Assembly (NCBI RefSeq): GCF_003790525.1
Contig: NZ_CP033632.1
Strand: one strand, 5' to 3'
DNA length: 64,000 nucleotides
DNA from: Escherichia coli
GTDB taxonomy: Bacteria; Pseudomonadota; Gammaproteobacteria; Enterobacterales; Enterobacteriaceae
The position numbers and the translations under genes were made by a program. Below, piece by piece: positions 55,908 through 57,658 of this stretch (the first letter of the stretch is position 1; every line of letters begins with the position of its first letter). The notes beneath the pieces are model-generated. The model worked only from the letters and a program-made list of their open reading frames with translations, did no database searches and was not told the origin of the DNA.

Positions 55908-55968
55908 CTATAAAGAACTAAAGAAATGAAGATACAAAGATACGAATATCTGAATAAAAACAGAAAAA

Positions 55969-56089
55969 TGCGTACCCATCCACCTTTCAGTGCGTACCCA
56001 TCCACCTTTCAGTGCGCAGCCATCCACCTTTCATGAAAATTACAGTGCGTACCCATCCACCTTTCAGTGCGTACCCATCCACCTTTCAT
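55969..56089. repeat. Five 22-bp direct iterons (TGCGTACCCATCCACCTTTCAG) of an orphan plasmid origin
   Basis: Five tandem near-identical 22-mers, contiguous apart from one 11-bp gap. Confidence 0.7.
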
Positions 56090-56254
56090 TTTGAGGCGAC
56101 AAAAAACAACACCTATCTTAATGAAATTATTGATAAAAAAACTGGCACAATGTTTGCAGAATAAGTTAGAGTAAGTTAAAGATCTTAAAGTAGATCTACC
56201 GATCTACATTTAAGATCTTAAAAACAAGAAGTTTAATAAGCAAAAAAACACAAA

Positions 56255-56310
56255 AAATCTGTGGATAACTTTGCTCAAAACAAAAAATTCACACTACCTG
56301 TGGATAACTT
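56255..56310. promoter_or_regulatory. DnaA boxes (2x TGTGGATAA) next to AT-rich GATC-containing region
   Basis: TGTGGATAA at 56260 and 56300; GATCT repeats at 56180-56220. Confidence 0.55.
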
Positions 56311-56950
56311 TGCGTAAACCCAGAGGACAGATCACTCTGAACCAAGACAACCACACATAAAAACAATATGCTCGCTTTTTAACCACTGCGCGTAATTGCC
56401 TGATGTTATCCCTGTGCTGTTCCGCTTCCTCGCTCACTAACTCGCTACACTCGGTCGTTCGGCTGCGGCGAGCGGTGTCTCCTTTCTCAAAACCAGAAGA
56501 GTTCAGATCATACGATCCGTTGATTGATCCTTTTTGGATCTTTCACTGAGAAGCCCTGAATCGCTTTCTAACGCTTTGTTCGATGTAACCATGAGGAAAA
56601 CCATGTGAAATCGAAAAAATCGCTCAGAATGCGATACAGCGCGTTTTAGAGGGTATTTACAAAACAGTCGTTGCCTTGAGGAAATTTTGATCAAGATTGA
56701 ACTCCTATCCGGATCATGGCAACAGATCACAGCAACAAGGCCGCTAAAAAGCGTTGAGCGGCGTTAAAAACCGTTAAACCGTAGCTGACTATAACGAAAC
56801 GGGAAAAAACGCTCAGAACGCGTTACAGAGCGTTTTAAGGCGATGTCGGAAAGAGCCATACCTCACCTGTTCTGATGTTTTTCTCAACACAAGCACTTTT
56901 AAGAGTACTTTTAAAGATGCTATTATGCCAATAAGACAAGCGGAGGACTT

Positions 56951-57202
56951 ATGAGCTATCAAATTCTGACAACCACAGCGGCCAGTATTACTGACCTGAA
57001 AAAAAATCCTATGGGAACCGTAGCTGAAGGTGAAGGGGACGCTGTTGCGATCCTGAACCGAAACGAACCGGCGTTCTATTGCGTTCCACCAAAACTTTAC
57101 GCCTACTATCGGGAACTCGCTGAAGATGCTGAGTTAAACGCTGTTGCTGATGAGCGCATGAAAAACCCGGAAATTGTGAAGGTTAACCTGGATGACCTAT
57201 GA
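56951..57202 (+). CDS. stbD: RelB/StbD (Phd/YefM-family) antitoxin
   Basis: 83 aa; overlaps toxin start by 11 nt. Confidence 0.8.
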   Translation: MSYQILTTTAASITDLKKNPMGTVAEGEGDAVAILNRNEPAFYCVPPKLYAYYRELAEDAELNAVADERMKNPEIVKVNLDDL

Positions 57203-57473
57203 ACTGGCTTTTGACCGCAGAGCACTGAAGGAATGGCAGAAACTCGGCCACACCATCCGTGAACAATTCAAAAAGAAGCTGGCAGAACGGCTGGAAAATC
57301 CACGCGTACCCGCAGCCCGGTTACATGGTCATGCTGATCGCTATAAAATCAAACTTCGTGCATCTGGCTACAGACTTGTATATCAAGTCATTGATGAGAA
57401 AGTCGTTTTACTCGTTATTGCTGTTGGAAGAAGGGAAAGCAGCGAAGTTTATCAGATTGCAGATATGCGCTGA
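57192..57473 (+). CDS. stbE: RelE/StbE (ParE/RelE-family) toxin
   Basis: 93 aa; ...YRLVYQVIDEKVVLLVIAVGRRE... Confidence 0.8.
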   Translation: MTYELAFDRRALKEWQKLGHTIREQFKKKLAERLENPRVPAARLHGHADRYKIKLRASGYRLVYQVIDEKVVLLVIAVGRRESSEVYQIADMR

Positions 57474-57658
57474 ACTGAAACCCGCCCCGTAATTCGCGGC
57501 TGCAGCCGCTCAGACGCGCAGATGCTACACACCGTCACGGCGTACCGTTCGCAAGCTTACGCGCTAACTGCGAAAGGCTAATTGCGTGTTGTTAGTCCGG
57601 TAATGGGCTTTGCAGGGAGGGGGGATGTCCCTGATCTTAATTAAGCTGGTTTGTTTCC

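Follow-up and report, generated by a model that had tools for sequence, protein, structure and literature searches.

Iteron origins depend on an initiator of their own, of the Rep3 type (reviewed in PMC4980987). The origin of IncX1 plasmids is organised like that of R6K (PMC3332091, PMC3097218), with five iterons as the stated normal number and with the toxin-antitoxin (TA) genes stbDE placed beside the replicon (PMC3402527). Wang et al. described a chain of an IncX1 segment, an IS26/IS1294 boundary, IS50, aph(3')-IIa, ble and oqxAB, and traced it to an IncX1 backbone (PMC6052338). Here we analyse positions 55908-57659 of a stretch of 64,000 nucleotides from the Escherichia coli contig NZ_CP033632.1 ("the window" below means this whole stretch). 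Judged by its sequence, the segment derives from the backbone of an IncX1 plasmid, of which it comprises the gamma-type iteron origin and the adjoining stbDE genes. We are confident, if not certain, that it is to be explained as an IncX1 remnant trimmed by IS26, in which the origin would stay silent unless an initiator is supplied and stbDE would be the retained active part.

IncX1 identity of the segment and its iteron origin

A megablast search with the 1751 bases from 55908 to 57658 against 72,556 plasmids returned 1776 records, 661 of which cover at least 80% of the query. Many plasmids are 100% identical over all 1751 bases, the intact IncX1 plasmid pD90-3 among them, and identity to pOLA52 is 97.5% over 1564 bp, which include the origin and stbDE. 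Collinearity with pD90-3 begins exactly at 55908 and extends over 6.75 kb to 62658. An earlier reading of the DNA from its letters alone (the sequence-only reading) had taken the segment for a fragment of another, IncX-like plasmid backbone, which the database matches now specify as IncX1 (of the 100% pD90-3 type, 97.5% to pOLA52). Its left limit at 55908 was correct, while the right limit lies at 57659 and not at 57658, as the inverted repeat of the right-hand IS26 begins at 57660.

The outer end of IS26 meets IncX1 DNA at 55907/55908. IS26 is present in direct orientation on both sides of the segment, as a complete copy on the left (55088-55907) and as a stub on the right (57660-57801) which retains the same starting end. 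Since the right copy has been cut by IS1294, IS26 alone can probably no longer mobilise the IS26-bounded unit in its present form.

Five copies of a 22-bp repeat with the consensus GTGCGTACCCATCCACCTTTCA (0-2 mismatches each, none expected by chance) lie at 55968-55989, 55990-56011, 56012-56033, 56045-56066 and 56067-56088, the first of them 60 bp past the end of IS26 (55907). They are followed by an A+T-rich stretch with GATC sites, by two DnaA boxes and, further to the right, by a twice-repeated motif and a TA pair (Table 1). All of these had been listed by the sequence-only reading, and its proposal of an IncX-like organisation holds as well, with the DnaA boxes and the A+T-rich stretch adjoining iterons of IncX1 sequence. 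Perfect DnaA boxes number three in the window against 0.56 expected, and at least four GATC sites within 60 bp occur at only four places in the 64 kb, including 56181-56217. Another of these places, 60857-60964, is situated where the IS50 transposase gene ends, shortly ahead of aph(3')-IIa. The A+T-rich stretch is likely the part of the origin that unwinds and is sensitive to Dam and SeqA.

Arrays of comparable size serve as partition sites in some plasmids, and the 22-bp repeats might likewise belong to a non-replicative family such as a centromere or a regulatory array, a match that the sequence-only reading had named as the finding that would speak against an origin. We regard this as hardly credible. 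The repeats lie directly upstream of a Rep3 initiator gene in 702 plasmid records, they are flanked by the A+T-rich stretch and the DnaA boxes, relatives with other Rep variants have other repeats at the same place, and the IncX1 literature calls them five iterons (PMC3402527). A 43-aa "hypothetical protein" of RefSeq runs through the iterons (window 56012-56164, corresponding to 34443-34574 of pOLA52, NC_010378.1); this open reading frame (ORF) is almost certainly a spurious gene call inside the origin.

Table 1. Features of the IncX1 segment and of its borders, in window coordinates
Feature	Coordinates	Strand	Evidence and remarks
Complete IS26, left boundary	55088-55907	-	GGCACTGTTGCAAA terminal repeat at both ends; transposase ORF 55140-55862; matches other IS26 copies
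Leader, 60 bp, 77% A+T	55908-55967	+	Surviving last part of the rep-iteron spacer; collinear with 5001-5060 of the pD90-3 locus compared
Iterons 1-3, contiguous, 22 bp each	55968-56033	+	Identical in IncX1 plasmids
Iterons 4-5, past an 11-bp gap	56045-56088	+	Repeat search
A+T-rich stretch, 73%	56089-56259		Four GATC (56181-56217) in AGATCT-type palindromes; conserved in IncX1-like relatives
DnaA box 1, TTATCCACA, perfect	56260-56268	-	Motif scan
DnaA box 2, TTATCCACA, perfect	56299-56307	-	Invariant in 6 of 6 aligned IncX1-like origins; left edge of the conserved block
ColE1-like stretch, resembling a primosome-assembly site (n'-pas / ssiA)	56416-56492		57 of 61 positions identical to ColE1 1308-1368 (93%)
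Second GATC cluster, 4 sites in 32 bp	56506-56540		Most conserved part of the block
Repeated motif, copy 1 (ending in AAAAAATCGCTCAGAATGCGATACAGCGCGTTTTA)	56607-56648	+	Conserved in IncX1-like and IncX4 plasmids
Repeated motif, copy 2	56796-56837	+	Homology between plasmids with different TA cassettes ends directly after it
Likely stbDE promoter, TTAAGA-16-TATTAT with TG	56899-56926	+	Consensus match only; overlaps the direct repeat ACTTTTAA(G/A)
stbD, antitoxin, 83 aa	56951-57202	+	100% nucleotide identity to hits; coding sequence annotated WP_000121743.1, "plasmid stabilization protein"
stbE, toxin, 93 aa, RelE/StbE family	57192-57473	+	100% nucleotide identity to hits; coding sequence annotated WP_000220561.1
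IncX backbone remnant 3' of stbE	57474-57659		In pFAM21845_2, intergenic and followed by a J-domain gene
IS26 stub, 142 bp	57660-57801	-	Oriented like the left IS26; truncated by IS1294 (IS91 family, transposase 57970-59169)

Loss of the initiator and other rep-less copies

The segment is an origin fragment of the IncX1 replicon family and not a replicon, as the adjacent initiator gene that defines the family was looked for and is absent. Searching the window by tblastn with both Rep proteins of pD90-3 gave nothing better than E = 2, and the same search with the next two genes of pD90-3 (ddp3 and, in the position of bis, a gene for a hypothetical protein) found neither of them in the 64 kb (best E = 2). 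The origin is an orphan within the window. In pD90-3, an IncX1 plasmid by its typing, the DNA directly left of the breakpoint encodes two proteins with Rep3_N and Rep3_C domains. The start of the nearer gene is 191 bp away from the position at which the window has its IS26 junction. The product of this gene shares 99% identity with the sole initiator of pOLA52 and 40% with the pi protein of R6K (E = 5e-53). The spacer of 191 bp contains the presumed rep promoter region and two of the seven copies of the iteron core ATCCACCTT found in pD90-3; these two are rep-proximal, and the other five are kept in the window. Because intact relatives carry a pir/repX-type gene 191 bp to the left of the IS26 junction, the comparison indicates that IS26 did remove a pi-like initiator gene, as the sequence-only reading had thought probable, and with it the rep promoter, the two rep-proximal iteron cores, bis and ddp3.

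Rep-less copies of the same DNA, with three distinct IS26 breakpoints, are present in at least 31 database plasmids, which are of IncHI2 and IncF type according to MOB-suite typing or published description. The junction of the window type occurs in one record, p2EC1-2 (typed IncFIB/IncFII), which is the only plasmid with exactly this left junction in PLSDB and the E. coli complete genomes. Another 23 records have IS26 joined 10 bp further to the left; 21 of these plasmids measure 187-288 kb, and the one inspected, pSTM6-275, is IncHI2. A junction 162 bp further left is found in seven Klebsiella plasmids, of which the inspected one, OW849389, is typed IncFIB/IncFIC. The survey covers these three breakpoint types and is not exhaustive, and two of the types are only 10 bp apart and may be related. 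The intact junction on the rep side is kept in 702 records. MOB-suite types intact plasmids as IncX1 and none of the three inspected rep-less plasmids (one per junction type) as such.

In p2EC1-2 (NZ_CP047573.1) the junction lies at 20027/20028. This plasmid differs from the window by 38 mismatches, all of them to the right of 56116, and its origin-stbDE sequence belongs to the pOLA52 lineage, other than that of the window. The shared junction in a different lineage therefore points either to IS26 having acted independently at one and the same base or to recombination within the origin.

The initiator might have been displaced to another part of the same plasmid, for example by an IS26-mediated inversion or translocation, in which case the origin would not be an orphan. 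Our view is limited to 64 kb, IS26 rearrangements often split adjacent DNA, and the window holds at least seven copies or parts of IS26. We nevertheless consider such a displacement distinctly improbable: no rep is found in the 64 kb, the rep promoter and the rep-proximal iteron cores are gone as well, and pSTM6-275, p2EC1-2 and OW849389, which are complete, rep-less and represent each of the three breakpoint types, are not typed IncX1.

The resident replicon (17764-19203) contains RepB (18027-18947, minus strand), which is annotated as a plasmid replication initiator and could for this reason be suspected, like any other protein of the window, of driving the IncX1 origin. On both sides of RepB lie iterons of 21-22 bp of the TCGCGTATAGTCAA type, accompanied by a perfect DnaA box (19195-19203) and a GATC cluster (19092-19199). 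RepB does not resemble the IncX1 initiator (E = 2.5), and the resident iterons, with a spacing of 21 bp, are unrelated to GTGCGTACCCATCCACCTTTCA. Cross-activation of the IncX1 iterons by RepB is therefore very unlikely, and we give next to no weight to another window protein in this role. The plasmid pPSS-10_1, which matches the resident replicon, is of MOB-suite type IncHI1B.

We suggest that an IncX1 segment was captured together with aph(3')-IIa, ble and oqxAB into a multidrug-resistance region rich in IS26 and IS1294, and that an IS26 event subsequently cut away its rep side. The origin alone should be unable to fire, as firing of an iteron origin requires the Rep3 initiator that belongs to it, and RepB of the resident replicon is dissimilar and has other iterons. 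The initiator of an IncX1 plasmid that has the same iterons and enters the cell would be expected to bind to the five copies, and the array could then fire or, more probably, titrate the initiator and pair with the incoming origin, which would result in IncX1 incompatibility. By analogy to R6K and other iteron plasmids, it is reasonable to expect such residual incompatibility or activity in cis when Rep is supplied in trans, as the sequence-only reading had anticipated.

Iteron arrays are classic incompatibility determinants of iteron plasmids, and it is conceivable that the rep-less array has been selected as such, enabling its host plasmid to exclude IncX1 competitors. In line with this, all three IS26 breakpoints fall within the 191-bp spacer between rep and the iterons, and all five iterons are kept in each case. 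However, the breakpoints are of three types only, two of them possibly related, and hitch-hiking with stbDE would explain the retention equally well; we therefore regard selection of the array as rather unlikely. Under the explanation that we prefer, that of an IS26-trimmed IncX1 remnant, the segment is ordinary plasmid debris, of which identical sequences and the surrounding arrangement are already present in databases and literature. Room for novelty is left only in the conserved non-coding block described below and in a possible selective value of the kept iterons.

A conserved non-coding block between the origin and stbDE

A block of about 540 bp (56297-56835), which reaches from DnaA box 2 to the repeated motif, is conserved in six aligned IncX1-like origins, with up to 90% invariant columns. 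The iterons, Rep and the TA cassette (stbDE, higBA-like, relE/HTH or none) vary across the aligned lineages, and different repeats stand at the iteron position in relatives with other Rep variants. IncX4 plasmids share 56420-56649, and one IncX4 plasmid has the same stbDE. In every variant the homology stops right after the repeated GCTCAGAAYGCGWTACAGNGCGTT motif, which we interpret as a module boundary. No conserved ORF was found in the block, and a hidden gene is rejected: the 75-aa minus-strand ORF at 56503-56730 is frameshifted or stopped in relatives, and the substitutions lack a periodicity of three bases. An Rfam scan of 55800-57800 in E-value mode detected no RNA family.

Two features of the block, the second GATC cluster and the ColE1-like stretch at 56416-56492, are additions to the sequence-only reading. 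The ColE1 counterpart of the latter (1308-1368) is situated some 110-170 bp past the RNAII/DNA switch, as estimated from the Rfam RNAI hit (645-749) and the length of RNAII, which is about 555 nt. It is common to more than 3000 small ColE1-type plasmids and is the source of thousands of short matches. In ColE1-type plasmids the PriA-dependent primosome assembly site ssiA lies downstream of the RNA/DNA switch (PMC3167613), and by homology the stretch in the window would be a site of this primosome-assembly type. Folding of the stretch as DNA gave no signal on either strand (z = 0.24 and 0.99), so that homology is the sole ground for this assignment. A search of the open-access literature found no paper tying IncX origins to a primosome assembly site.

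The copies of the repeated motif are 42 nt long and 189 bp apart, and their 24-nt core occurs nowhere else in the window. Copy 2 can form a hairpin with a 9-bp stem (z = -3.4 as DNA). A hairpin or terminator on the minus strand is consistent with one compensatory change between the two copies (ATCGC/GCGAT vs AACGC/GCGTT); among copies from relatives the pairing is not consistently kept. We set aside an interpretation as oriT because the literature places the oriTs of IncX plasmids within long inverted repeats close to taxC and ddp3 (PMC3402527); in all ten fetched loci that have the motif, it is found at this one spot only. A role as StbD operator was likewise set aside, given that the motif persists in plasmids with another TA cassette or with none. 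The 109 bp around DnaA box 2 (56290-56398) are 85% identical to 22115-22223 of the Shigella flexneri virulence plasmid NC_002698.1, where they are unannotated, and are also matched in a 261-kb E. coli plasmid.

The block could represent an autonomous module that IncX subgroups have in common irrespective of their iteron or Rep specificity, and which might provide PriA-dependent priming on single-stranded DNA and a fixed boundary for the exchange of TA cassettes, with the iterons kept in addition to exclude IncX1 competitors. If this were true, the remnant would be a selected, origin-derived weapon with a priming site instead of debris. We consider this combined interpretation quite doubtful.

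The stbDE genes, the resistance region and comparison with known systems

The TA pair had been read as RelB/RelE-type, which holds for the toxin; the family of the antitoxin is less clear-cut. StbE passes the TIGR02385 RelE_StbE model (39.4 bits, cut-off 27.9) and the Pfam model ParE_toxin (53.7 bits, cut-off 23; 3e-14), and aligns with structures of E. coli RelE over 90 residues (E = 1e-35). StbD is no clear RelB: only its last ~27 residues are RelB-like, and its matches to YafN, RelB and DnaT are far below the curated cut-offs. Both genes are intact, with stbD upstream of stbE and an overlap of 11 bp, an antitoxin-first order with overlap as in type II TA systems of the RelE/StbE kind. In some records StbD is annotated as "Primosomal protein 1" (DnaT), for example in OW849389.1, where 4044-4295 correspond to window 56951-57202. 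This label is an annotation artefact, because the NCBIfam DnaT match is confined to the N-terminal part and reaches 31 bits against a cut-off of 201.

The stbDE genes of R485 have been characterised, and neutralisation of toxicity by the antitoxin as well as plasmid stabilisation are reported for them according to PMC3402527. We think that the pair in the window is probably still an addiction module, consisting of a stable mRNA interferase of the RelE type and a labile antitoxin. It would stabilise the host plasmid and penalise IS26 deletions that reach into stbDE, and for this reason the fragment with its adjoining origin DNA would persist beside a very active IS26.

Several points weigh against the explanation of the segment as a silent origin kept with an active stbDE. 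The activity of stbDE is assumed from the intactness of the genes. The resemblance of the N-terminal part of StbD to Phd/YefM/YafN is weak (PhdYeFM of Pfam, 16.6 bits, cut-off 29.8). In one study of IncI2 plasmids, according to its abstract, the StbDE that they carry turned out not to be the crucial addiction module (PMC11878559). Furthermore, a rep gene may lie elsewhere on the plasmid or on a co-resident IncX1 plasmid, and in that case the origin would be active or actively controlled.

To the right of stbE follow the IS26 stub, the IS91-family element, an IS50 transposase, aph(3')-IIa, a further IS26, oqxR and oqxB. The two last-named genes lie past the last IS26 (window 62757-64000), with oqxR at 62757-63332 and the C-terminal part of oqxB at 63402-63974 (minus strand). 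The same chain is described in PMC6052338, which bears out the suggested link of oqxAB to IncX1; the window thus carries the published IncX1-derived aph(3')-IIa/ble/oqxAB module with its rep side trimmed. The IS91-family element (IS1294 according to PMC6052338) is present twice, at 20012-21712 beside the resident replicon and at about 57802-59486 beside the IncX1 remnant, and the two copies could mediate further rearrangement.

The locus provides an example of how IS26 trims a captured backbone while an addiction module survives, and it helps to explain the stable carriage of the IncX1-derived aph(3')-IIa/oqxAB module by unrelated plasmids (IncHI2, IncF and the replicon of the window). It also calls for caution in annotation and typing, as an IncX1 origin that lacks rep is not to be taken for a working second replicon, even if incoming IncX1 plasmids could still prove incompatible with it.

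Compared with known systems, the TA pair is like RelBE and StbDE in the relationship of StbE to E. coli RelE beyond the family cut-off and in its overlapping genes with the antitoxin gene first. It differs from RelBE in its antitoxin, the N-terminal part of which is Phd/YefM/YafN/DnaT-like below threshold. The ColE1 site belongs to an RNAII origin, whereas its counterpart in the window is part of an iteron origin dependent on Rep and DnaA.

The R6K gamma origin (IncX2) works with pi in trans. It shares with the IncX1 origin the 22-bp iterons beside a gene for a pi-type Rep3 protein (the initiators being 40% identical), an A+T-rich stretch, a DnaA box and GATC sites. By contrast, it has seven iterons of another sequence and a GATC cluster on the rep side of the iterons, and it lacks a match to the ColE1-like stretch. 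By analogy the origin in the window would work like R6K gamma, and it is not a member of that group because the segment has no detectable nucleotide similarity to R6K.

The closest counterpart is the module of pOLA52, R485 and pD90-3 (ddp3-bis-(repX)-pir, gamma origin and stbDE), with 97.5-100% nucleotide identity, five 22-bp iterons, DnaA boxes and stbDE. Unlike these plasmids, the window lacks the initiator gene or genes, the promoter, the two rep-proximal cores, bis and ddp3, is cut at 55907/55908, and has its fragment in a plasmid with a different replicon. The right-hand IS26/IS1294 boundary is that of pD90-3 and of published F33:A-:B- plasmids. The remnants in IncHI2 plasmids of the pSTM6-275 type and in Klebsiella IncF plasmids of the OW849389 type have the same 1751 bp at 100% identity, likewise bounded by IS26 and without rep, and differ from the window in an IS26 junction that lies 10 bp and 162 bp, respectively, further to the left.

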